IMG/VR virus record: IMGVR_UViG_3300048691_000224
Reading direction: 5' to 3' (one strand)
DNA length: 64,000 nucleotides
Source of the DNA: a virus
Taxonomy: Duplodnaviria > Caudoviricetes
The position numbers were made by a program, and so were the translations under genes. Of this stretch, positions 243 to 63,616 are shown piece after piece. Each line of letters opens with the position of its first letter. Positions within the stretch are counted from its first letter, which is position 1. The notes beneath the pieces were generated by a model. The model saw only the letters and a list, made by a program, of their open reading frames with translations, was not told the origin of the DNA and made no database searches.

Positions 243-800
243 TTAAATCTCGTGTGTTGTTGTTTGAGGTTCTTCTAACCAACGAATAAATGATTTGATT
301 ATAATGGGAATTTCTTCCTGTGGAGTTTCCCAGTGTGACGACCAGATATTGATTAATACTGCATCATCTGAGTCACGCTGTAGGAATTTACGTGTTGTTA
401 CTGAAAGAACTTTCAGTACTTTCTTATATCGCCACATGAGCCCGCGGTTGAAGTGTTGGAGATATGTGATAACTTTTTGATCTAAGCCAAGTGACTGATC
501 TGATAAGAAATCTGGTGTGAAGTATGATTGTTTATTGACTGGATTCGACGTCGATGAACACTCAATCGGAGTTTCTGAATAGATTGCAGCAATTACTTCA
601 GCTTTTGTTAGTGATGATTGCTCAGGTTCCTTGTATTCTCTATATATCACACTTGGATTCGAACATTGGCTGTCTGAATAGCCTTTATCATCAGTTGGAA
701 ATGTACAACATGAACCGGTAAAGGCACAACCACCACACCAGCCATCTGGACTAGCAATTTTAATATATTTTTTATCACCGATAATGGCAAAATCTGTCAT
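243..800 (-). CDS. Hypothetical protein with Cys-rich CxGCAF N-terminal motif
   Basis: ORF-track start is 830; SD-like AAGGA favours the ATG at 800. GWCGGCAF motif is shared with the ORFs at 5331 and 46726. Confidence 0.6.
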   Translation of the reverse strand: MTDFAIIGDKKYIKIASPDGWCGGCAFTGSCCTFPTDDKGYSDSQCSNPSVIYREYKEPEQSSLTKAEVIAAIYSETPIECSSTSNPVNKQSYFTPDFLSDQSLGLDQKVITYLQHFNRGLMWRYKKVLKVLSVTTRKFLQRDSDDAVLINIWSSHWETPQEEIPIIIKSFIRWLEEPQTTTHEI

Positions 801-2821: not shown

Positions 2822-4048
2822 TCATGTTGTTTTATAAAAATCTATAAAACTAACTAAACGCTTCAACGAAGATGCCTTTGGTATTTCTACCGAAGGTCTT
2901 AATTCCTCTCGACGTTTGTAATCGGTCAATTCTTCCGATGAAAACCCATAAAGATCGTCAAGACCTTTATTTAAAATATTAACCGCAGCGTTTAAGTCTC
3001 TATCATGATTTGTTCCACAAGAACTACAAACCCAATCTCTTATGTGTAAACCCATATCAGTTTCTTTATGACCGCAATTAGAACACGTCTTTGAAGATGG
3101 ATACCAACGATCAATTTTCTGAAAGGACCTACCATACCAGTTCGACTTATATGCAATCATAGAAACTAGAGTCGACCAAGAAGCGTCAGAAATTGACTTC
3201 GCTAATTTTCGATTCTTAACCATCCCTTTGATATTCAAATCTTCCATGCATATGGTGTCATAATTATTAACTAACCACGTGGATAAGTTTTGATAAACCC
3301 AGTTTCTTTGATTAGATAATTTAAGATAAGACCTTGCAACTTTTAATCGTTGCTTCTCATACCTAGAACTGCCATTCACCTTTCGACTTAAATGCTGCTG
3401 TTCTCGTTTTAGTTTAGATTGGTTTTCTCTAAACCATCTTGGATTTTCAATCTTCATACCATTACTCATGATGCAAAGATGTGTAAGGCCCAAGTCAATA
3501 CCGATTGAGCGACCGGTATTTTGTTTCAACTCTATAGTTTCTTCAACTAGAATTGAAGCAAAATATTGGTTTGCTTTATTTTTAGAAATTGTTACATTCT
3601 TTACAGCGCCGGAAAACTTCCTATCTATAGACATTTTGATTGGCGTCATCTTAGGAATTTTAATCCTTGAAGTCTCAAAATTTACTTGAGAATTTGAAAA
3701 TTTCTGACCCGGAATACGAAAAGAGTCTATAGAAACTCCACGTTTCTTAAACTTCATTCTGCCCAGTTTAGACTTACGAGTTTTGGAAAAGAATTGACTT
3801 TTAGTTTCTTCAAAATCCATACGTTTTTGTTGGAGTGCGTATGAAATCGAATCGTTTAACCAACTAAACTCAGGTGTATCTTTTAAGGTTTTCTCACTCA
3901 TGGGTCGGTTAGGCCCTTCTTTTGAGAATGAGTTGAAGTTTGCAACTAACTGGTTCCACACAAAACGCACAGAACCGAAGACTTCAGAAAGATACTTTTC
4001 TTGAGTCTTAGTTGGATAAATTCTGTACTTATACGATTTTAGTTGCAT
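2822..4048 (-). mobile_element. tnpB: IS200/IS605-family TnpB RNA-guided endonuclease, no adjacent tnpA
   Basis: N-terminal YKYRIYPT HTH; RuvC motifs IGIDLG, MEDL and DRDLNAA with all three acidic residues present; CSNCG/CSSCG zinc ribbon. Confidence 0.92.
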
Positions 4049-4568: not shown

Positions 4569-7500
4569 TTACTGCATTGCAAATTTGTTTGCAAAGACAC
4601 CAACTGCTCTCTGTGAATTACGGCGTACAAATTCAGCATCAATTTCGTCCAGAACTGCACTTGCGTCTGCGATGGTTTGTAGTGCTTCATCGCGTTCTGT
4701 TGTGTACATTGCCACTGCATCATGCAGTGTTGAGTCTGCGAGTGTTGTTAGGTCTACGTGGTTCATTTTAATTAACTTTCTTGATGTGGCTTGCAGTTTC
4801 TACAATTGATTTTAACGTTGGGGCATCGGCCCAGCATCGTCCGCGTACCTCTGCAGCATTCACGTGAAGATCATACCCAACCCCACAATCCGCGAATACT
4901 TTAACCACTTTACCACACAGTCTTGTGGGTGGTAATGAGTACGGTGCACGAAGAAATTTTCTAGGCAGTTCATATTCAATTTCATCCCCAAAACAGATTC
5001 CTGTTCCGTCTGAATAATGATATCCAGTCAGTTCACGCTCATCATATTCTGACTCCGGTGGTGATTGATGTTCTGTTGCACCTTCAAACTTTTCTTTCAG
5101 GCGAATATATGTAGAATATTCATCTTCCGTATCGAGGAGATAATGTGTAACTTTATCAATTTCAGAATGATGTGTGGAATTCAAGCCATTAACGCTCGCA
5201 TATGCGTCCAAAACTTCTTTGACAGAAAACTTTGTTGGTTCTTGTTCAACAGGAGTTGACTCAGTATACATTGGTTGTTCCGCTGGACTCTTATAATATA
5301 CTCTCTTATATTTCGCTTGTGAAAACATAATTATTTTACCTTGAGTGTGATGAAAGTGTTAGTGAGTTTGTTAGTGACTGCCTCTGCTTCTTTACGTGTA
5401 GCGAATGTTTGATAACAAATCACCACACCATTAAGATGAATTCTAACAATACACTGTTCCTGAATTACATCTGGCTCCACAAACTCAGCAATTTTCTGGC
5501 CATTCATGTACCAGAACTTTTTCGGTTCTGGTTTGATGCGATACTCGAAATCAACATTCCAAGAAGTATTGGCGCTAGCATTAATCCAAAAATCAAGAAC
5601 TGAAGCTCGATATTCTAATTGTTTTGGCTTGCCGGCTAATAGCGACTCAGTGTATTCGCGCCATACAGCATGATGCGGGTGGGTTGATTCGTAAATTTCA
5701 GGAGTTTTCATAGTTTCTTGTTTTGGTTTGCGTATGAAGATATAATCTCCACCTTCACATTCCGTATTGCATCCGTTGATAAATGCACACCCAACACAAC
5801 TACCAACTTTTGCGGTTTTAATATATCCATCAACATTTCTCATTTTATTCTCCAATTTCCACAGTCACAGTTTCACCAATCCACTTAACAAAATCTGGGT
5901 ATTCTTCACATTCTTTCTGAAGAGCAATACTTGCAGAACTACATACAGAAACATCGAATGTACCGGCTAAGTTGGTATACAAAAAGCAACGATACGAAAT
6001 AGTACGTACTTCTGGTTTCAACCTAAACACAACATCACAGTGTGCGTAATAAATTGCTTTGAGTTTTACAATTAAAATGTATGGTCTTCCTGCGAAAGAA
6101 TTTATCCAATTAATCTGATCGGTACTGTTTTGAATTGGTACACCATCGATGACGGCTTTCATTGCTTCTGCTCTAGTGATAATCATAATTTAAATTCCTA
6201 TGTTTAGTGTAACGTATGTGTGATCGACAAAACTATCATCCATCTTGATTTCACGCTTTTCGACGGGTTCAAATGTTTGGATATATTTGTTCGTACCTGG
6301 CATTTGAACAATCGCAGCATCAGGCAAATCTTTAATGAATTCCTTGAGATCTTTCACAGTCAGATAGTTCATTAATAATCTCCGTAAAGTTCATCATAAA
6401 TTTTGTCGGAATTCTCGTACCCGGTTCTCCATGAAATAAAGCATAACTGAGTCACCAATTCTGAATATTCAGTTTTATTTCTAGTAAAGTTTAGGTATTT
6501 TGAATCAATATTTTTCTCAAAAATATTCATTAAATCCAGTGTCATCATTTCAATGAGTCGCTCTACACCTGGAAACATACCACACTTGTCACCATCGCCA
6601 TATTTGCAACCGTATTTGTATTCACCTTGATAGCAGTGTGTTGAGCAAGCCATATCAAGTACCCTCTTTCAAGATATAGAGTTGTTTAAGTAACTTAGCT
6701 GCATCAATAACAGTGATATATTCTGTAACATATCTTTTTGGGCCATCAAACGAATATTGCTCGGTCTCTCCAGTTTGAAATTCAATCTTAACCTTTGAAT
6801 ATTCAATTAGTTCAATGAGAAGTTCTAGTGTGATGTTCATTATAGCGCACTCATATTACAACCCAACACCATTACATGGGACATTGGTAATCATTTGGTT
6901 GATTGCAGTATGCAAGTTAGAATCAATCCGACTTACTGTGACAACACCAAAGCACAAACCATTTTCGGCTTTGGCATAAGTTATGCCGTCAACCAAACTT
7001 TGAGCATCTTGTGGTTTCGTCTCTTCAACAGCAGGTGTACGCGCAATTAGTGTTACCGTAACACTAATTGCGGCAATTAGTGTTACCAAAATTAGCAAAA
7101 ATAAAAATTTATATAGTTTCATACTATCCTTTATAATAACCTTCAATATCAAATTCTTCAATCAGTGAATCTAACCAACGATGTCGAAATTGTTGTACAT
7201 TTTTATATGTAAGCTGGGAGCGAGGCACTTTAACAACTTCACGTAGATAAGTTTCTACAGAATGTGGAAATGCTTTATCTGGTCGCTTGGGGAATCGTGA
7301 CATAATGATGCTTCTACAAATAGCATTAACGTCACGTTGATAATCACAATAAGAAAAAGCCATAACATCAACAATAGCATTACAAATATGCATTTGTGTT
7401 GTTGATCGACTATATGAAGTAGACCCATCACACAGTCTGGATTTAGCTGATTTAAAATAATCAGAAATATTTTTATTTGATATTTTCATATAATTCCAAT

Positions 7501-16180: not shown

Positions 16181-16505
16181 CTAGTTGTTGGGTGATAAGG
16201 TAACCAGCCTCAGCGTGTTGTCGGTGTTTAGGCGACTAACGCAAATAATTCATCGTTGTGAGTTATTATTTGTTTGCCAGATTTAACGACGTTCGTGCGT
16301 GTCGGATTGTAATTAAATTCTATTCTCTGTCAGTCGATTCTAGATCGCCCCCATCAAAAACACTATACTCGCACTGGACATAATGTTTTTGGTGGAGGCG
16401 TCGGGATTTGCACCCGATTGTTGCCAGTTTTACCAATTTAGGTTTCCAGAGTTTCTAGCCCGAGGCGGATTAGAGTACCGCACCCTTCGGAAGCTCATCA
16501 CAATC
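16181..16505 (-). ncRNA. ssrA: Circularly permuted (two-piece) tmRNA
   Basis: T-arm plus CGCCTCC-A-CCA (ends 16390) lies upstream of the 5' strand GGGGGCGATCTAGAATCGAC (starts 16352). The strands form a 7-bp acceptor stem with G3.U70. Tag frame ends ...HNDELFALVA* at 16228. Confidence 0.9.
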
Positions 16506-25313: not shown

Positions 25314-26456
25314 TTATTCGACTGAATCCTCAATAGTCTCAGTTGCCCATGCTGGTTTATATTCAGAATACCGCTTGATTAAAAATTGTGGATAGTCCAC
25401 AATCCGTCCCAAGTAGGTATTCATCATCAATTGCATCAGGTCAGGATGTTCGCACTGTGCCTTGATTGCATAGTCCTTGCGCTCTAGTAGCTTGTTTTCA
25501 GCATAAAATTTACTGACTTGAGACTCAATCGAATTAAGAATTGGGAACACGTGATTCTCCATTGCTGTGATTCGATCTTGGACGTACTTGTCATCACCGA
25601 AGATACTGCGAATATCGTCCGTCCCCTGGACCGCGGCTAGTTCAAATAGTGCGCGGGGGCTGTTGACATTATCCTTCTGCTTATGCAACAGAACGTATTT
25701 GTCAGCCTTACACTTCACTAGGTACCGTACCCCTGTCGTAGGGTTGTGCATCTCGACTACACAACCTTCACCTTCTTGCAATTGCTTGCAATACTCATTG
25801 AATTCTGATGGGATCATTTCTGGAAACCCGTGAGAGACTAGGTACTCACTCGGGACAGTAACACCAGTAACTTGTGCTATTTGTGCTGGGAGAATATACT
25901 CCCCTGTTGCCAAACTCCGGATGCCCAAAATTCGCAATTGTGGGATTTGATATCCCACAACGATTCGATTGTGTGGTGCGGTGTACTCCAGACTGACTGT
26001 GTAACCAGATAACTCCAGCATTTTTAGCGCGATCCGCAGTTCTTCGTGGTATGAGATGTAATATGCTGCGTCGCCTGACTGATCAGAATACACCGAACCC
26101 TTAGACTTAACATGTAGATTGCCGTTGACCAACATTGTGCTAATTAGTGATCCATCTAGTTTTTCCATTGCACTCGAAATAACACACTCATCGTGGTCCA
26201 CCCCACCTTCGGCAAAATTAAAGAATTTTTGAGGTGGGAGAGAAATCAACTGAGGGTTGCCTGTGATGTCATATGTCGTGCCACGACAGTCAAGTGCACC
26301 TGGCTTCTGGAATTCTGTCCACGACGCGAGGCGGTAGTTGAAAATTCGAAGGACTCTCCCCAGATATTCAAAATCTTTGAAGTAAAAAGTATCACCTTCA
26401 CTGCATAGAGCCATAAGGTCTGTATACAATGTATTAGCATTGAACTTAGTTGACAT
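25314..26456 (-). CDS. rnlA: RNA ligase 1 (T4 RnlA/gp63 family)
   Basis: PPQKFFN, MEKLDGSLI, VKSKGS, EGCVV and LVKCK motifs. Confidence 0.9.
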   Translation of the reverse strand: MSTKFNANTLYTDLMALCSEGDTFYFKDFEYLGRVLRIFNYRLASWTEFQKPGALDCRGTTYDITGNPQLISLPPQKFFNFAEGGVDHDECVISSAMEKLDGSLISTMLVNGNLHVKSKGSVYSDQSGDAAYYISYHEELRIALKMLELSGYTVSLEYTAPHNRIVVGYQIPQLRILGIRSLATGEYILPAQIAQVTGVTVPSEYLVSHGFPEMIPSEFNEYCKQLQEGEGCVVEMHNPTTGVRYLVKCKADKYVLLHKQKDNVNSPRALFELAAVQGTDDIRSIFGDDKYVQDRITAMENHVFPILNSIESQVSKFYAENKLLERKDYAIKAQCEHPDLMQLMMNTYLGRIVDYPQFLIKRYSEYKPAWATETIEDSVE

Positions 26457-35033: not shown

Positions 35034-37058
35034 ATGAAAACATCCCTTGCTGGTATTTTGAACAGACGTAGAGTAGTTTCGGGTGTAGTGAATAATCTAT
35101 TATTTGGACTTGGAGCTAACTGGTTTAACAATATATCAACATCCAACACTCAATTTTATACCACTCCGTACCAAGTTGATAATTCAGAGTGGATTTCAGT
35201 TAGCAATGGTATACATTCAGCCTACGGAGTTAGATCTGACGGGACGCTATGGGCTTGGGGACAGAATTCAGGTGATGATTTTTTAGCAGTAGGCAACATC
35301 AATCCTACTCACCCACTACAAGTCGGTTCAGATACTGATTGGGCGAAAGTGGTTGGCTCTCAGTATGGTGCTTACGCCATCAAACAAGATGGGGCGCTGT
35401 ATGCGTGGGGAGAGGATTCGCAAGTACTAGGTTTCGGCAATACACAAATCAATGTAATGACTCCGTCACTCCTACCAGGAACCTGGTCGCATATCGCCGC
35501 AGCACAAGTTGTCACACTAGGTATCAAAACAGACAATACCCTGTGGGCTTGGGGATCTGATTCGTATGGAGTGTTAGGGACAGGTGTAGAAGATGTTGGA
35601 TTGTGGTCCCCAACACAGGTAGGGACCTCCACATGGAATACCGTCGACATGGTTAAAGATATGAGTATCGGGATTCAGTCAGATGGAACCATGTGGTCGT
35701 GGGGTAGGTGGAATAATGGTGCAACTGGGAATGGTGGTACTACTGACATCACGGAATCACTACCAGTCCACATTGGTGTTGGGTATACGTGGTCACGTGT
35801 AGCTTGTGGAATCCAACACAAGCTGGCTATTAGATCTGACGGAACCCTGTGGTCGTGGGGGTCAGGTGATTTGGGAGTACTAGGGTTGGGAGACCTCATC
35901 AATCGATATGAACCAACCCAAGTGGGTACAGACTCTGATTGGGTCTTTATTAAAGCAGGGTGGTACTTCTCTAGTGCACTAAAGGCTGATGGGTCGCTGT
36001 GGGTTTGGGGCGAAAATGTTCAAGTTATGTCCGATGGTTCAGATTATGCTGCGGTCTTAATACCAACTAAGATATCAAAAGGACCATACAAATTTATATC
36101 TCACAGTATATCGATTGAACCTGAGACATTTTTGCTTACAGGGACTAACACACTGCCGGTAGCAATTGCGTTCAATGCAATTGCTACTTTTTCGTTGGGT
36201 TACGATATTAGCAATTACACAACCATTGAGTTCAACGGATTATTCAATGTGGTGCAGACCACTGTTGTTAACATAACCGCCAATGTTGCAGAACTGAATT
36301 TTTTAAACTCTAATGCGATAACTTATGGTAGTGGGTCTGGTGCGCCATTAGTTGAGTTAACACTAACTGAAGCTCAGGTTACCCAACCATCAGCTTTTAA
36401 TGGTATTCCTACGCTACAGAAGTTCACGTGCAATACAATGTCTACAATCGCAGCGAGCACCTTTCAACAGTGTGCCAGCTTACAGACAGTCATTCTTCCA
36501 GCAGTGAGTACAATTGGCACTCAAGCATTTGTTGGTTGTACGGCATTAGATCTAGATCTTAGTGATTTTTCATCGTGCGTTGTCATCGAGGCTCAAGCAT
36601 TTAGTGGATGCACTGCACTCACACCACACATCACCACCCAACACTTTCCAAGTTTAACTCATCTCGGTAAAGGTGTGTTTAGTGCATCTAGTGTAGGTAG
36701 AATTGAGTTGCCTACAGTGACGAGTGTTGACACCGATGGGCCAATATTCACTTCTGTTGGGCACATCCAGCTCAACGGACTTAGCTCAATACAAGGAACC
36801 TCTTTTGTGTACTGCACATCTTATATACTGGAGTTTGCGGGCTGTGTGAGTGTTGGGGATTATGCATTTGCAAACTGGAGTCCTGTCGGTGCTGCATTGT
36901 CGTGGTTATATCTACCGGTCGTAACCACTTGGGGCAATGATGTATTTCATGGAGTCTCCGGATTGTCAGTTACTCTCACTATCCGCACAGATCAACAGAG
37001 TAATCCAAATGTATTATATCTTCAGGCGAATAATGATGTTACCTTGGTGTTAGTGTGA
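35034..37058 (+). CDS. RCC1/BLIP-II beta-propeller repeats fused to BspA-type leucine-rich repeats; candidate receptor-binding protein
   Basis: About six (S/Q)DG(T/A)LW(A/S)WG repeats, then LP(A/S)V..IG..AF..C..L repeats. Confidence 0.85.
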   Translation: MKTSLAGILNRRRVVSGVVNNLLFGLGANWFNNISTSNTQFYTTPYQVDNSEWISVSNGIHSAYGVRSDGTLWAWGQNSGDDFLAVGNINPTHPLQVGSDTDWAKVVGSQYGAYAIKQDGALYAWGEDSQVLGFGNTQINVMTPSLLPGTWSHIAAAQVVTLGIKTDNTLWAWGSDSYGVLGTGVEDVGLWSPTQVGTSTWNTVDMVKDMSIGIQSDGTMWSWGRWNNGATGNGGTTDITESLPVHIGVGYTWSRVACGIQHKLAIRSDGTLWSWGSGDLGVLGLGDLINRYEPTQVGTDSDWVFIKAGWYFSSALKADGSLWVWGENVQVMSDGSDYAAVLIPTKISKGPYKFISHSISIEPETFLLTGTNTLPVAIAFNAIATFSLGYDISNYTTIEFNGLFNVVQTTVVNITANVAELNFLNSNAITYGSGSGAPLVELTLTEAQVTQPSAFNGIPTLQKFTCNTMSTIAASTFQQCASLQTVILPAVSTIGTQAFVGCTALDLDLSDFSSCVVIEAQAFSGCTALTPHITTQHFPSLTHLGKGVFSASSVGRIELPTVTSVDTDGPIFTSVGHIQLNGLSSIQGTSFVYCTSYILEFAGCVSVGDYAFANWSPVGAALSWLYLPVVTTWGNDVFHGVSGLSVTLTIRTDQQSNPNVLYLQANNDVTLVLV

Positions 37059-45000: not shown

Positions 45001-45086
45001 TGTTTGATGTGCCAGTTTCCAAACGACATGTTGCAAGCCCAAGGTCCCGGCGTGTGAGTTCCCTGTACTTTAGTTTGGTTACTCAT
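42085..45086 (-). other. Hypothetical early ORFs (42085-42384, 42369-42752, 42745-42951, 43072-43842, 43839-44243, 44225-44407, and tandem HTPGPW-family paralogs 44404-44736 and 44733-45086)
   Basis: ORF track; HTPGPW...ANARLI.AP.LL motif in the last two. Confidence 0.7.
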
Positions 45087-45594
45087 GTAGTTCCTTTGTC
45101 AATTCGACTTTGATTAATTCTTGTACGATTTTTGGATCCGCCTTGATTATCTTCAGTACACTCCCAACTAGTGCACCAATAGCTTTAGTATTACCGGACC
45201 GATATTGATCAGCCGCCCTCTCATTCTTTGCAATGACGTCACGCACTACAACTAAAATATCGGTAGAGCTTGCTTCGTTCATCAATCGTGAAGAACGCAA
45301 ATAGTCGATGATGTTGTACCCACAGTAATTATACCAACAATCATCGATAATTTTTTTCGCGTGAGAATATGATATAGTTTTGTGGTGTAGGCAACAAGCG
45401 ACATCTGCTGTCAGTTGAGTGAATCCATAATGATAGTACTCAATATCACCAATATCGGTGTCTTCCTTTTCCAATTTGGGTAGAATTTCATTTATCATTA
45501 GCTTAGCTAGATATGGGCCCGCCTCATTGGGATGGGCGCTAGTCAAACACGACATCATGATCGCACCCAATTTATCTTTTTCAGTTTCAGTCAT
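45079..45594 (-). CDS. Standalone GatB C-terminal/YqeY-like tRNA-binding domain protein
   Basis: VVRDVIAKNE...QYRSGNTKAIGALVGSVLK..KADPKIV resembles the GatB C-terminus. Confidence 0.8.
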   Translation of the reverse strand: MTETEKDKLGAIMMSCLTSAHPNEAGPYLAKLMINEILPKLEKEDTDIGDIEYYHYGFTQLTADVACCLHHKTISYSHAKKIIDDCWYNYCGYNIIDYLRSSRLMNEASSTDILVVVRDVIAKNERAADQYRSGNTKAIGALVGSVLKIIKADPKIVQELIKVELTKELHE

Positions 45595-48731: not shown

Positions 48732-48806
48732 TGGTGCTCCCACAAGGACTTGAACCCTGCTTTCCGGATTACAAAACCGGTACATCGCCGTCTATGTTTT
48801 GAGAGC
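48732..48806 (-). tRNA. tRNA-Thr(TGT)
   Basis: Cloverleaf, TGT anticodon, CCA. Confidence 0.85.
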
Positions 48807-49444: not shown

Positions 49445-49533
49445 TGGACCAAGCACTCAGATTTGAACTGAGGTGTGTATGTGATACATGCGGATTTGCA
49501 ATCCGCCCCCTTCGACCACTTGGGTATGCTTGG
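49445..49533 (-). tRNA. tRNA-Cys(GCA) with a long variable arm
   Basis: GCGGA-TTGCAAA-TCCGC; 17-nt variable region with TGTAT/ATACA stem; U73; CCA. Confidence 0.85.
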
Positions 49534-49747: not shown

Positions 49748-49823
49748 TGGTTGCGGATGGAACGATTTGAACGCCTCCTTGAGGTTATGAGCCTCATGTG
49801 CTGCCGGATTACACTACACCGCG
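49748..49823 (-). tRNA. tRNA-Met(CAT), fMet-like (C1:A72) with an imperfect acceptor stem
   Basis: CGCGGTG 5' end; TGAGG-CTCATAA-CCTCA; CCA; its 5' end overlaps the HNH stop codon. Confidence 0.75.
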
Positions 49824-50727: not shown

Positions 50728-50934
50728 GAGATCATTTCTGTTTACTTCTACACCACGTCTGATGTACTAATTTTGGTTTTAGTTGCTACTGAGCTATATG
50801 CCAATAATATTTGTGAGGCTGTGCGAGCTCATCTGCACACTTGGGCTTTTTGTCTTCTCGTTCCAGCTGGCTCTTACGACTGTAGCGTCACCTCAAAAAA
50901 TGGTGCTCCCTCACTCAATCAGGAATACACAAAG

Positions 50935-51020
50935 TGCTGGACACAGGATTCGAACCTGCGATGGATAATAAAATCAATAGCTTACAAAACTATTCCCGTC
51001 AACCGCTTGGGTAATCCAGC
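50935..51020 (-). tRNA. tRNA with TGT (Thr) anticodon on a class II (Leu/Tyr-like) body
   Basis: D-loop CCCAAGCGGTTGACGGG; ATAGT-TTTGTAA-GCTAT; 17-nt variable region; A73; no encoded CCA. Confidence 0.75.
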
Positions 51021-58724: not shown

Positions 58725-61165
58725 TTAAAGATGTTTTAATTTGTATTCTATAGTACCGCTGCACCACTCACGAAACCCCACCATACCCTCCACATTGGCG
58801 TTGTGGTGAATAATTTTCAATAATCGTTCCATTGATGTAACTCGCTCCTGAAGAACTTCAATTACATCTGCTGCTGTATCCATTACGGTATCGCAACTAA
58901 TCGCTCGACCAGTTTCATAGTCACACACCTGCCCATCACGCAACGATTTTTTGAGGGCTGTCAAGTATTCAGGGCTTGTGATTATGGATTTATATTCAAT
59001 AGTCATTATCAGTTCGCTCCATTGGAAGAAATTTCCTGTACTTCTGCCAGTGCAGTCACATCGAAAGAGTCAGCACCGATGCTGAGATACCCTGTAGACA
59101 TGTTTCCATAACGATCAGCAATTGCTAGCGCCTCGTCGCGGTCCGCGACTGTCACTCGGATAGTTACTGTGATATCAAATTGCATATGTGTACCTTAGTT
59201 GAATTGTTTGTCGATACGGTAATTATCTACCCTAATTTGCAAAAGGTCAACGGTTAATTTTTGTTAATTTTCCCCGTTGGTACGCATATATAAGCGGCGG
59301 GAATATATGTAGGTAGGACGCCCATCATGCGTCCTACAGTAATGTGATTCAAGATTTGCGCTTTAGCTTGTTCACATGCAGTCGGAGATGCGTATTCACC
59401 AAGTAGTGTAGGAGGGCTTGAAGCTGATGCGGCAAAAAGCAAGATTGTCAAAATTGTTGTGGTCATGGTATCCTTAGATTGGTTGCGCTTTGGGTCTATT
59501 ATCCCCTAATTTACAAAAGGTTAACTACTATTATCTCAAAATTAATTTCACATCACCAACGGAGATCCAATGGGTAATATATCCATAACAATCAGTGTCT
59601 CCTTCATTAGCGACAAAGCCATATTCACTAAAGTAATAGTCTGCCACAAATCTACCCCTACCAATGGGTCTGAGGTCGTGAATAGCAAACACCCGTTCGC
59701 CATATTTTGGAGTGCGGGCGATGACATCTACCCACTCAGACATTCTTGATATCAGCGACTCATGTTTCTGCCAGCGTTCAGCGTATTCAGCATTAGTCAA
59801 CTTTGGTTTCGGTACATATCCAGTAGTAAGTGGATCATACTCTGGTGTTGTAGAATATGAATCAATTTCCCCTAAAATTAGGTCTGCAATGTCATCACAA
59901 TCGATGAGTAGATTACTACCCGCGAAGGATATTTTAGGACCAAATGCTTGAGGCAGGGCGACATAATCTGAATCAGGGTGATCTTCATCCCACCTTTTCA
60001 GCAGTTCAGCCATGCGTACAATTTCTGCGACTAGTGTATCGGACGAGTCGTCGTGGCGTACGTTGATAGTTTTATCATTCATGTGGACTCCTCAAGTTGT
60101 CTAAGTTCATACTCTTGTAGTTCTAACCAACAAATTTTAGGTTCGTTGAGATTTGCAAACTGATAGAACCAACCAAGCGGGTGGCGCTGTGCACCCAAAT
60201 ATACCAGGACTACAGTACTGTTTATATATTTGTAGTTTTTTCCAACTGACATTTGAGATAGGTACATTTCTACTCCAATACACTCAAATACAGATCAACA
60301 TCCCAATAGTGCTCATTAGCCTCATGCACCAAAATTTCAGCATGCAGCTCATCTACCATTGCCACAAATTTCTTTACATCGGTAAGCTCATCAGTGATTA
60401 ACCTGGTTGCACGTTTGGAAAGCGCCCATCGGTCAAATGTTTCATTGCTTTCCGACAATTCAAATTCATTATCACAATTGATCCGCCAATGCCTGTTCTT
60501 ACCAATACCGACATAATCACCATCTCGAATTGGTTCATTATTGTACCGACGTAGATTAGCTGCTTTAAGGAATGACCCTTTGATTTTCTTAATCATTTTG
60601 AACTCCAGTGTACGTGTGTTGCCCAGTCTGGTTTGTTGTGCAGCATAGCAATATTAAATTCTGTAGAGGAATCATCCTGCATTACACTAGAACAAACAAT
60701 TGTAGATGGGTCATAGTAAAAATCACCCTCATGTTTGCATGCATAGTGCGGGTCAAGGTCTTCATCCTGATATTCTTCACACTCAAGATCTAAAAGAAAA
60801 ACTGGAATTGGCTCCACCCAACTCGACTCACTCCACTTTGTCAGTGATGCAATGTGATTATCTGGTGCTATTTCGATCATAATTTACTCTCAGATTAATT
60901 GTTGTATGTTGACGACACATCTATGCGAAACCCAGTCATTATATTGGCTGGCTTCTATCACGCCAGATACATGTTGCCCGTCGGGTGTAACATAAACAAT
61001 CTTTACACCGTATGCTGAAAAACTAACACTAACTAATTCATTAGATAACCCACATTGTTTAGCAAAGCCGCCAGTAAACTCAAACATGAATGAATTTTCA
61101 TTTGCAAAGATGAATTCTTCGGCGGTTGACAAATAATCTAAAAATTCACCACGTAAACTAGCCAT
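58725..61165 (-). other. Hypothetical early ORFs (58725-59006, 59254-59466, 59531-60082, 60079-60267, 60270-60596, 60593-60880, 60890-61165)
   Basis: ORF track. Confidence 0.6.
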
Positions 61166-61184
61166 AATTTAAATCTCCTAATTG

Positions 61185-61285
61185 TAGTCTCTATAGGGCT
61201 CGAACCTATTTCATTACCAAGTCAGCGACGCCTGTTTTCTGACTAATCGAAGGGTAATGGTCTTACCGTGTTAAACGAAGAAACC
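61185..61285 (-). tRNA. tRNA-Arg(TCG)-like gene with a 27-nt hairpin insertion in the anticodon loop
   Basis: GGTTTCT/AGAGACT acceptor, D-arm, CATTACC/GGTAATG stem, ATAGG-TTCGAGC-CCTAT T-arm; insert at 61219-61245. Confidence 0.7.
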
Positions 61286-61298
61286 TTAAATTCACATA

Positions 61299-63616
61299 TT
61301 ATTTTACTACGATTTCATGAGAACATGAAGGGCACTTAATGTAATTAAAATAATCTCGATCGCCAGTATAATCTGTTGAATATGATTGTTGTACATCAGA
61401 AGGTGTATATTCCAATGTCGAACCGCAGTTCTTACAAACAACTTCTTTAACTACACTTTTATGTGGTTTTGTATCAATAATTCTAATCATAATTCACCAA
61501 TCAATATTAATTGCGTACTCACCTGCAGGCAGTAGACCTTTGGCATGTAGATCATTGATAACCATATCAACACTAGGATAAAAATTTCGAGCCCAGAATA
61601 AATCGATATACCACTGAGTATTTTGATCTGGGATACCGTACCATTCTTTTGGGTCACGAGCGAGCCAGGCGCTGAAACTCACACCCCGCTCTTCACCATT
61701 AACTTCATCTGGAATTGTGTCGTTATCATAATCCCCAAGATACCCATCTGATGGAACTGTGATATATTCCAACCCACGAGATTTACAACTATCTTGTTGT
61801 TGGAAATTGTAGATGCGTCCATATGTATCCATGACTAATTGGTCAAAATCATCTACATTGATTGTGTGTAGTGTTTTAATTCTAATCATACATATTCCTT
61901 GGTTTGTGTTTCTTCTATCCAGCGGGCCCAGTAGCCATGTGCATTTATGGTTTCGTCTTGCGTCAATGAGCCAGTAGACACCCAGTGAAAGATGCCACCT
62001 TCATTATCAATGTACGCGCGGGACTGATAGGTCTTCACCTTGGGTCGAATACGAAACTCTGCGAGCTCATATCGGCCTTCGTAGTTACTGATGTATGCTC
62101 GCAAAGTTCGTTCGACTGGCGTGGCTGCACTATTGAAACAGTCCCACTGCTCCCCTAGGAACTTAATGTCTAAGACATCACCAGCGAGGATGGCTTTGAT
62201 GATTTCTACTTGGTTCATTTGAAAAATCCACCAAAGTATACACACGCCCAAGCTGGGCTAGCGCACACGACACTAACCCAAAAGTTGTAATTTCCGACTT
62301 GCGGCTTACCATGCATGTGTGCTAAAAATAAAGCACCCACAATCTGCAGGCAAATATAAGCTATTGCATAATTACTCACAATCTAATTCCTCTATGTTTT
62401 TAGTATACTCGAACAATCGCTACAACTTCATTCAAATCGAGCGTTTCCAACTCAATTAAGTTGCGTGCACTACCAGATTGTACGAAATTGCTGATCGATC
62501 GATTGCACAGAGACTGAGGGCTTATGGGGCTGTACGAAGAATATGCCTGATTTGGGTATGCCGTGAGGTTCTCGGTGTTAAAATCGATGTCACAAGACTC
62601 AACTTTGTCAAGCTCGATAATCGCACCAGACTTCATGTAAATTTTTAATGAATATGTCATATTATGATCTCCATTAGTTGTGGGTTCGTTGGATGGGGTT
62701 TCACATCTCACATACATGAGTCTAGTGAGTTGATGTAGGGTCTATTATATACTAAAATTGGAATAAGGTCAACAGATCGAAATCGTGCGTGTCCAAACAA
62801 ACCTAGTAGACGCTGGTACCCACTTGACTTCACACCGCTTGTGTTGAGGTTTATGGAAGTCAACACAAATGCAAAACCAACCGCGCTCTGGAGCAAAAGC
62901 AACAGTGTCTACAAATTTCATGATTTGAACAATTGTCCCGTCGATAGTTTTTGCAATTTGCATAATTATTTTCTCCCAGGTTCGAATTCTATCGCATGCG
63001 GACATTACACGATTATTCGTGCTAAGCTCTCACACCTGATCTCTCTAGCAATTTCATCAATAACATCTAGCACACCGAATTTCCACAGTTTGTTGAAAGA
63101 AATCATACGACACCGATTCGACGATAGTATCGCACAACTGTCGCAACTGTCCTGGTCCTTTTTTGCGCATCGCCACAGTTTCACCAACACGTGGGATTGG
63201 AACGGCTGTCCCTGTTTCACCACTAATCACTTCACAACCTTCAGCGCTAATATAAAAGTTCATCTTGGTTTTCCTTGTTTGTTTGATCTTAGGGTCAATT
63301 ATACCCTAATTCTACATCATGTCAACACTTATTTGAGAAATGAGATTTTTACTCACAAAAGTCCACAGTATTGTTAAATTGCGTTTCAATAAAATAGTGT
63401 GTATGTTGGGTTTGAATACGTGATCGCTTCAATTTGCAAGAGCTCAATGGATTGGACCAACAATCTGGTCTTTGCTTGAGTGCTTTGAGCAAGTTTAAAT
63501 GACGAAATCACACTATTCGTATAGTCCACAGTTATTTCCTTGACCCGATCGAGTACCAGTGAGTTTCCAGATTTCATAAAAATCTCAACAGTGTGAATTT
63601 TTGTAATTTTAATCAT
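61299..63616 (-). other. Hypothetical ORFs (61299-61490 Zn ribbon, 61494-61889, 61886-62218, 62400-62717, 62769-63005, 63057-63263, 63386-63616)
   Basis: ORF track; early promoters at about 62735, 63288 and 63637. Confidence 0.6.

Follow-up and report, generated by a model that had tools for sequence, protein, structure and literature searches.

A tRNA-shaped gene of an uncultured freshwater jumbo phage probably encodes a small RNA that does not read codons, that uses the tRNA fold as a scaffold and whose working part is the loop of a hairpin carried on the anticodon arm. The element is a 101-nt cloverleaf on the minus strand, at positions 61185-61285 of the window, by which we mean the whole stretch of 64,000 nucleotides that was analyzed. 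A tRNA-framed small RNA is likelier than an intron-containing tRNA because the hairpin is the best conserved portion of the gene, while the would-be anticodon is not conserved.

An earlier note on this stretch had described a tRNA-shaped gene with complete acceptor, D and T arms and a hairpin insert, the removal of which leaves a 7-nt loop. Both the gene and its anatomy were confirmed. In a local Rfam search the element was recognized as tRNA (RF00005) over the full model with 38.5 bits (E 1.2e-6, cut-off 29), and the Rfam alignment places a 29-nt insertion in its anticodon loop. ARAGORN, run with introns allowed and a threshold of 95% (-i -ps95), reads the same stretch as tRNA-Arg(tcg) with a 27-nt intron at 37/38; in this reading excision of the 27 nt yields the 7-nt loop CUUCGAU with U33 and A37. 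With its default settings ARAGORN did not call the element, irrespective of intron mode, and an Rfam scan at gathering thresholds over the whole window missed it, such that a local search was needed. Weak points of the window copy concern the D stem, which has a U.C mismatch, the first acceptor pair, G1.U72, and the 3' end, for which CCA is not encoded. Its folding energy resembles that of shuffled sequence (z = -0.22) and is uninformative. Rfam has no model for the present family; a family model, R1, scores the window element with 120 bits. The parts of the element are as follows.

61185-61285, minus strand: whole tRNA-shaped RNA gene, with the acceptor strands at 61279-61285 and 61186-61192 and discriminator A at 61185
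61279-61285 with 61186-61192, minus strand: acceptor stem of 7 bp (GGUUUCU/AGAGACU), including G1.U72
61259-61276, minus strand: D arm, stem GUUU/GACC with the U.C mismatch and a 10-nt loop, AACACGGUAA
61253-61257, minus strand: 5' strand of the anticodon stem (UUACC), pairing with GGUAA at 61214-61218
61245-61252, minus strand: 5' loop segment, CUUCGAUU, containing the would-be anticodon UCG
61220-61244, minus strand: hairpin module, AGUCAG (61239-61244) and CUGACU (61220-61225) enclosing the loop AAAACAGGCGUCG (61226-61238)
61214-61219, minus strand: single U (61219) after the hairpin, followed by the 3' strand of the anticodon stem (GGUAA)
61193-61209, minus strand: T arm, stem AUAGG/CCUAU and loop UUCGAGC

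The hairpin thus consists of a 6-bp stem and a 13-nt loop, AAAACAGGCGUCG, and is unique in the window, with its one copy at 61220-61244. The arms AGTCAG...CTGACT form one other hairpin, at 5026-5054, whose loop is unrelated; it lies within an ORF and was judged to be due to chance.

The element is embedded in a co-directional run of small genes, an operon, and has no promoter of its own. Its immediate neighbors are the following.

61494-61889, minus strand: conserved phage gene for a 131-aa protein (phrog_27943), which precedes the RNA throughout the family and serves as syntenic anchor
61299-61490, minus strand: ORF for a 63-aa zinc-ribbon protein (phrog_2834), upstream, stopping 14 nt before the RNA
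60890-61165, minus strand: ORF of 91 aa, beginning 20 nt downstream of the RNA

The zinc-ribbon ORF is missing from two of the relatives (L090 and L088) and is mentioned as context only. Ordinary tRNA genes number 21-22 in the window and share the minus strand, and the description of the element as isolated is fair because the nearest tRNA of the array is 2.5 kb away. Two of the array genes have long, class-II-like variable arms, namely tRNA-Cys(GCA) at 49445-49533 (minus strand, 89 nt) and a second tRNA-Thr(UGU) at 50934-51020 (minus strand, 87 nt), where tRNAs for Cys and Thr belong to class I as a rule; a normal tRNA-Thr(UGU) is also encoded at 48732-48806. A tRNA match at 49752-49822 (minus strand) was obtained with Rfam only (37 bits) and not with ARAGORN, and Rfam also detected a permuted tmRNA (RF04321, 73 bits) at 16228-16448 (minus strand).

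With regard to protein-coding genes, the window encodes two RNA ligases, one Rnl1-like (25314-26456) with a tRNA-specific C-terminal domain and one of family PF09414 (55255-55896). A Thg1-like gene (tRNA-His guanylyltransferase family, PF04446) occupies positions 1-282 on the minus strand, is complete in L084 (8881-9681) and adjoins a gene for an HD-domain protein. Together with a YqeY/GatB-domain protein (45079-45594), the Thg1-like gene and the two ligases provide the window with a rich repertoire of genes acting on tRNA and RNA. A TnpB/IS605 OrfB gene with HTH_OrfB_IS605, OrfB_IS605 and Cas12f1-like TNB domains is located at 2822-4048 (minus strand) beside a gene for dCMP deaminase, and a 674-aa protein combining RCC1 repeats with BspA-type leucine-rich repeats, which is unusual for a phage, is encoded at 35034-37058 (plus strand).

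Similarity of the window to isolated phages is limited to a weak match of a neighboring gene to the T4-like Aeromonas phage 65, and no relatives of the RNA were found among isolated phages. As the nearest IMG/VR record comprises 38.7 kb and is rated 12% complete, the genome should amount to roughly 300 kb, of which the window represents about one fifth. DNA nearly identical to the window is contained in many freshwater metagenomes.

Relatives were sought in IMG/VR and in Logan assemblies with the upstream 131-aa gene as anchor. The anchor protein is 88% identical to that of the window in L001 (IMG/VR) and, among Logan contigs, 80% in L087, 88% in L090 and 75% in L088/L089. The resulting family has six members with five distinct sequences (window, L001/L091, L087, L090 and L088/L089). 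All close relatives carry an insert-bearing tRNA-shaped gene directly downstream of the orthologous 131-aa gene, without any intervening ORF in L090 and L088, and the copy in L001 scores 40.8 bits as tRNA with Rfam. Five other contigs contain the gene too, with covarying stems, and we therefore regard the element, on sequence comparison, as beyond chance. It is absent from 80 metagenome loci with anchor proteins of 49-65% identity and likewise from contigs L092, L093 and L095. Scanning IMG/VR for the hairpin pattern returned the L001 contig as the only match, and a pattern for the 3' half of the L088 version had no match there. Among 185,579 species genomes there was no true match to the hairpin pattern; four sequences that matched formally are unrelated, have neither tRNA nor hairpin context and approximate chance expectation. 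So far, the family appears confined to two sub-lineages of one narrow group of uncultured freshwater phages.

The anchor gene itself is widespread in large phages. In loci lacking the RNA its neighbors often include tRNA arrays, tmRNA or a gene for a PF09414 ligase, and adjacency to one or other of these was noted in L092, L093, L095, L009, L022, L023, L046 and L061, with standard tmRNA genes close by in L023 and L046. This repeated vicinity hints at a role of the 131-aa protein in RNA metabolism. ARAGORN also predicted introns in tRNAs of the anchor loci L022, L023/L028, L024 and L072, which were dismissed as they have no backing from Rfam. Another oversized tRNA look-alike may exist on L061, a contig of marine metagenomic origin that also encodes the 131-aa protein: there, a stretch of 125 nt (654-778, plus strand) reaches a tRNA score of 33.8 bits and contains about 44 inserted nucleotides in the region of the anticodon.

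The insert is nearly identical in six contigs and several sequencing runs, and homologues without it, for which the earlier note had proposed a search, were found neither among the loci nor among the IMG/VR matches and DNA runs examined. This bears on the proposal that the hairpin is a small mobile insertion, either MITE-like or homing, that has settled in the anticodon loops of two tRNA genes which were disabled or tolerate it. Almost the same 25 nt indeed reside in two tRNA bodies that share only about 52-69% identity, the arms form a perfect 6-bp palindrome, and a TnpB gene of the IS200/IS605 family is present in the window. However, a mobile element would hardly be expected as a single copy in 64 kb with no further copy in the loci collected, in IMG/VR or in the 185,579 species genomes, and the DNA runs did not reveal an insert-less allele. 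Moreover, both carriers occupy the same syntenic spot beside the 131-aa gene, and therefore inheritance is indicated rather than two insertions. We consider a mobile origin of this kind highly improbable.

Differences between the window and the copies in L001, L087 and L090 are few and all of them are compatible with the structure: an A-U pair of the hairpin becomes G.U, G1.U72 becomes G1-C72, G57 of the T loop is replaced by A, and an extra A occurs in the variable loop. Variants within populations, as seen in sequencing runs, are equally structure-neutral and correspond to those in L001. They comprise 61201 C>T, which is the T-loop change G57 to A and is carried by a contig from run X18, and 61244 T>C, which is the wobble change in the hairpin. 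The informative comparison is that with L088/L089.

Acceptor stem: GGUUUCU/AGAGACU in the window, GUUUCCU/AGGAAAC in L088/L089
Anticodon stem: UUACC/GGUAA in the window, UAGUU/AAUUA in L088/L089
T stem: AUAGG/CCUAU in the window, GUAGG/CCUAC in L088/L089
tRNA body, window vs. L088: 35/68 identical (51.5%)
5' loop segment, window vs. L088: 3/8 identical (alignment A4)
Hairpin, window vs. L088: 24/25 identical
13-nt hairpin loop, window vs. L088: 13/13 identical

Within the hairpin 23 consecutive bases are the same and the sole change converts U-A to U.G, such that the stem changes seen across the family, A-U to G.U and U-A to U.G, are all wobble-compatible. The neighboring 131-aa gene, in which four-fold degenerate sites are 50% and third codon positions 61% identical, served as a neutral yardstick; under this yardstick the probability of at least 24 identities in 25 positions is 8e-7 to 8e-5. 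Structural alignment A4 has 96.3% of its cells paired and seven pairs with changes on both sides, values not reached in any of 500 shuffles, with slid controls giving 0-1 two-sided pair changes, and this covariation stems from a single deep split between the window clade and the L088 clade. In all members the stems of the acceptor, anticodon and T arms are paired. The anticodon stem (helix 3) and the T stem (helix 5) are paired in 100% of cells, with two-sided changes in L088 at three of five pairs in the former and at one pair in the latter, whereas the D stem (helix 2) is paired in 75%. Taken together, strong purifying selection on the hairpin emerges from these comparisons, and the shape of the cloverleaf is kept by compensatory changes with its sequence drifting almost freely. 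Two circumstances weigh against a scaffold interpretation here, the dependence of the covariation on one deep split and the fact that orthology of the window and L088 bodies is argued from synteny, sequence alone being insufficient for this at 51.5% identity. Comparison with other tRNAs did not reveal a clear parent isotype of the body, the best being tRNA-Glu and tRNA-Lys at about 0.67.

These data also bear on the possibility of a decaying tRNA pseudogene with a chance insertion and without function. Rejection of the element by ARAGORN in default mode, the mismatch in the D stem and a folding energy close to that of shuffled sequence would all suit such a relic. Against it, the seven two-sided pair changes keep all stems paired, and the hairpin retains 24 of 25 positions where neutral identity is about 50%. 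In the L088 copy, furthermore, the acceptor, anticodon and T stems are perfectly paired, and folding yields a z-score of -2.98. The homologues, for which the earlier note had considered random decay, instead show selection, and the pseudogene explanation is close to refuted.

A more serious alternative is that the gene specifies a true tRNA-Arg(UCG) with a short protein-spliced intron, cut out on both sides by an endonuclease of phage or host and sealed by a phage ligase, either the Rnl1-like or the PF09414 enzyme. The insert sits at the canonical position 37/38 and its exact removal (27 nt) leaves a textbook 7-nt loop, CUUCGAU with U33 and A37, in the window clade, which would be a coincidence if the RNA were never spliced and thus speaks against the scaffold reading. 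The same applies to codon use: CGA accounts for 104 of the 486 Arg codons of the phage and no other CGN-reading tRNA is present within the window, so that a tRNA-Arg(UCG) would be useful. The two ligases, one of them with its tRNA-specific C-terminal domain, and the Thg1-like gene at the start of the window fit with splicing as well, as does the precedent of tRNA genes in Lak megaphages that contain short, sequence-identical "enigmatic introns" (PMC6784885).

The comparative data nevertheless argue against this alternative on several counts. In the window and in L088 the anticodon loop measures 34 and 32 nt, respectively, in place of the 7 nt of a decoding tRNA. Conservation is much higher in the insert than in the exons, which is the opposite of what applies to protein-spliced tRNA introns, where exons evolve more slowly than the introns themselves. 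The anticodon triplet differs between the clades, with UCG in the window clade and an AGA/AGC context in L088/L089, and so does its distance to the hairpin. The 5' segment reads CUUCGAUU in the former and CUAGAU, two bases shorter, in the latter; neither the UCG triplet nor its spacing to the hairpin is therefore conserved. Because of the different spacing (9-nt vs. 7-nt loop), a cut measured from the hairpin cannot produce a 7-nt loop in both clades, and in L088 position 37 is U after any removal of 25 nt, with the resulting anticodon at odds with the body. With AGA or AGC as triplet, U37, a short variable arm and a U3-A70 pair, the L088 RNA fits neither Ser nor Ala identity, given the last two features and established identity rules, and on its sequence this version matches no amino-acid identity. 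In Escherichia coli the main determinant for arginyl-tRNA synthetase is A20, and C35 is an identity element as well. The window RNA has C35 and lacks A20, since its D loop, AACACGGUAA, continues after G18 G19 with U; the ordinary tRNA-Arg(UCU) of the window contains GGA, i.e., A20.

A bulge-helix-bulge motif is likewise absent. The predicted fold features an asymmetric internal loop of 8 nt and 1 nt below the 6-bp hairpin, and inspection did not reveal a 4-bp helix between loop and insert. A Pfam scan of approximately 50 ORFs from the window, which covers about one fifth of the genome, did not detect EndA/Sen, RtcB or Pnkp. Self-splicing is not indicated either: an insert of 27 nt falls well short of the size of group I introns and has no catalytic core, and it matches no Rfam intron or ribozyme family, tRNA being the only hit at E <= 10 that overlaps it (region 61000-61500). 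The idea put forward in the earlier note, excision by a nuclease followed by sealing through a phage ligase, thus holds as far as the two encoded RNA ligases are concerned, and is opposed by the comparative data where splicing to a working tRNA-Arg is concerned. Its other suggestion, an unspliced decoy, fits better insofar as an RNA that works unspliced is concerned, the role of decoy being a possibility, considering 24/25 identity in the insert vs. 51.5% in the exons, the unconserved anticodon, the missing bulge-helix-bulge and the absence of A20. Overall, a spliced tRNA-Arg is unlikely. A broader variant, rather improbable in our estimation, is a protein-dependent phage pathway that uses the phage RNA ligases and an unrecognized nuclease for excising a sequence-specific hairpin from tRNA-shaped precursors. 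If it existed, the hairpin would be the recognition signal and its excision would serve to expose a tRNA when needed or to free a small hairpin RNA, and this would constitute the first enzyme-mediated splicing of the tRNA type in the bacterial world.

Information on transcription is available from two sources. In L087 the RNA gene is directly followed by an intrinsic terminator and then by a promoter matching the sigma-70 consensus at 12 of 12 positions, from which we conclude that it closes a transcription unit. A 151-nt contig from the freshwater metatranscriptome X18 links the downstream ORF, the 3' exon, the complete insert and 21 nt of the 5' exon without interruption, which is weak evidence for an unspliced RNA because RNA libraries can contain DNA. 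No joint or deletion over the insert was seen in assembled contigs of three metatranscriptomes, one of them without coverage and one ending before the gene; contigs of this type capture mature tRNAs poorly, and they show that the unspliced form is present and say nothing about the spliced form.

The same contig is of relevance for the possibility that the tRNA body is merely a processing handle and that the freed hairpin of 25-27 nt is the actual product. Small RNAs derived from introns occur in archaea and animals, and selection on the sequence of the hairpin but not of the body, which keeps its shape only, would be in line with such a release. On the other hand, we know of no bacterial or phage enzyme that cuts at sites of this kind and, as for splicing, a cutting enzyme was not found here. 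A lone 25-nt hairpin would also be less stable than one held in a tRNA frame, and in the X18 contig the hairpin is still joined to the 3' exon, although this is a weak argument. Release of the hairpin is consequently very unlikely.

Returning to the tRNA-scaffolded small RNA as the preferred interpretation, the frame of acceptor, D and T arms and 5-bp anticodon stem would display the sequence-invariant 25-nt hairpin on the anticodon arm. We envisage that the RNA is co-transcribed with the upstream protein genes and excised by the ordinary tRNA enzymes, with RNase P acting at the 5' end, followed by 3' trimming and addition of CCA. By analogy with the engineered tRNA scaffold, the tRNA fold would stabilize the RNA, and a protein or RNA partner could recognize the 13-nt loop AAAACAGGCGUCG that the 6-bp stem exposes. 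Most likely the RNA stays unspliced and does not read codons. A possible role is that of a decoy or inhibitor of a host enzyme directed at tRNA. What speaks against the scaffold interpretation is that a candidate partner or target for the loop did not emerge: the window contains no site complementary to it at 11/13 or better (two mismatches at most), and no protein gene specifically co-conserved with the RNA was found.

The evolutionary signal is clear, the hairpin being the selected part and the tRNA only its frame, and genes of this kind should accordingly be annotated neither as intron-bearing tRNAs nor as pseudogenes. Large phages have many tRNA genes and a growing list of tRNA look-alikes that annotation pipelines do not report. 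Should the hairpin bind a host or phage factor, e.g., a tRNA-directed defense nuclease, a modification enzyme or an RNA-repair enzyme, the RNA would represent a natural counterpart of the laboratory tRNA scaffold and offer a new handle on the conflict between phage and host over the translation machinery. In practical terms the benefit stays modest as long as neither a partner nor a phenotype has been found.

Among known systems, group I introns in the anticodon loops of bacterial tRNAs are about 200 nt or longer and possess a conserved catalytic core (P3-P9). The present element resembles them in that the anticodon loop of a bacterial-type tRNA gene is interrupted, and differs by its insert of 25-27 nt without any match to an Rfam intron. 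Archaeal and eukaryal tRNA introns at 37/38 are characterized by the bulge-helix-bulge (3-nt bulge, 4-bp helix, 3-nt bulge), the endonuclease EndA/Sen and the ligases RtcB or Trl1. Position (in the window clade only), size and the availability of ligases in the phage are shared with these introns; the missing bulge-helix-bulge, an insert better conserved than the exons, the unconserved anticodon and the endonuclease not found in the window set the element apart. The stable RNA species 1 and 2 of phage T4 (rnaC, rnaD) are small, tRNA-related, of unknown function and encoded together with T4-type tRNA genes. They resemble the present RNA by description only, as small tRNA-related RNAs, and unlike it they are not simple cloverleaves with a hairpin in the anticodon loop.

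The nearest published case is that of the "enigmatic" introns predicted in tRNA genes of Lak megaphages, which are short and sequence-identical across samples (Devoto et al., 2019; PMC6784885). Enzymatic splicing of tRNA in phages or bacteria did not come up in our literature searches. Just as in the phage studied here, short inserts reside in anticodon loops of very large uncultured phages, become apparent only with eukaryote-style intron prediction, have their sequence kept identical across samples and are known from sequence alone (PMC6784885). In Lak phages, however, insert-bearing and insert-less alleles coexist and the tRNAs are otherwise typed as normal (PMC6784885), whereas in the present element the body and the anticodon diverge around a fixed insert; a sequence relation to Lak phages is not apparent. 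In architecture the element corresponds to the engineered tRNA scaffold of Ponchon and Dardel, in which acceptor, D and T arms are retained and a hairpin replaces the anticodon loop, and E. coli processes RNAs with such hairpins on the anticodon arm and accumulates them in stable form (PMC3753655). That scaffold is a laboratory design, and the phage RNA would be its natural counterpart.
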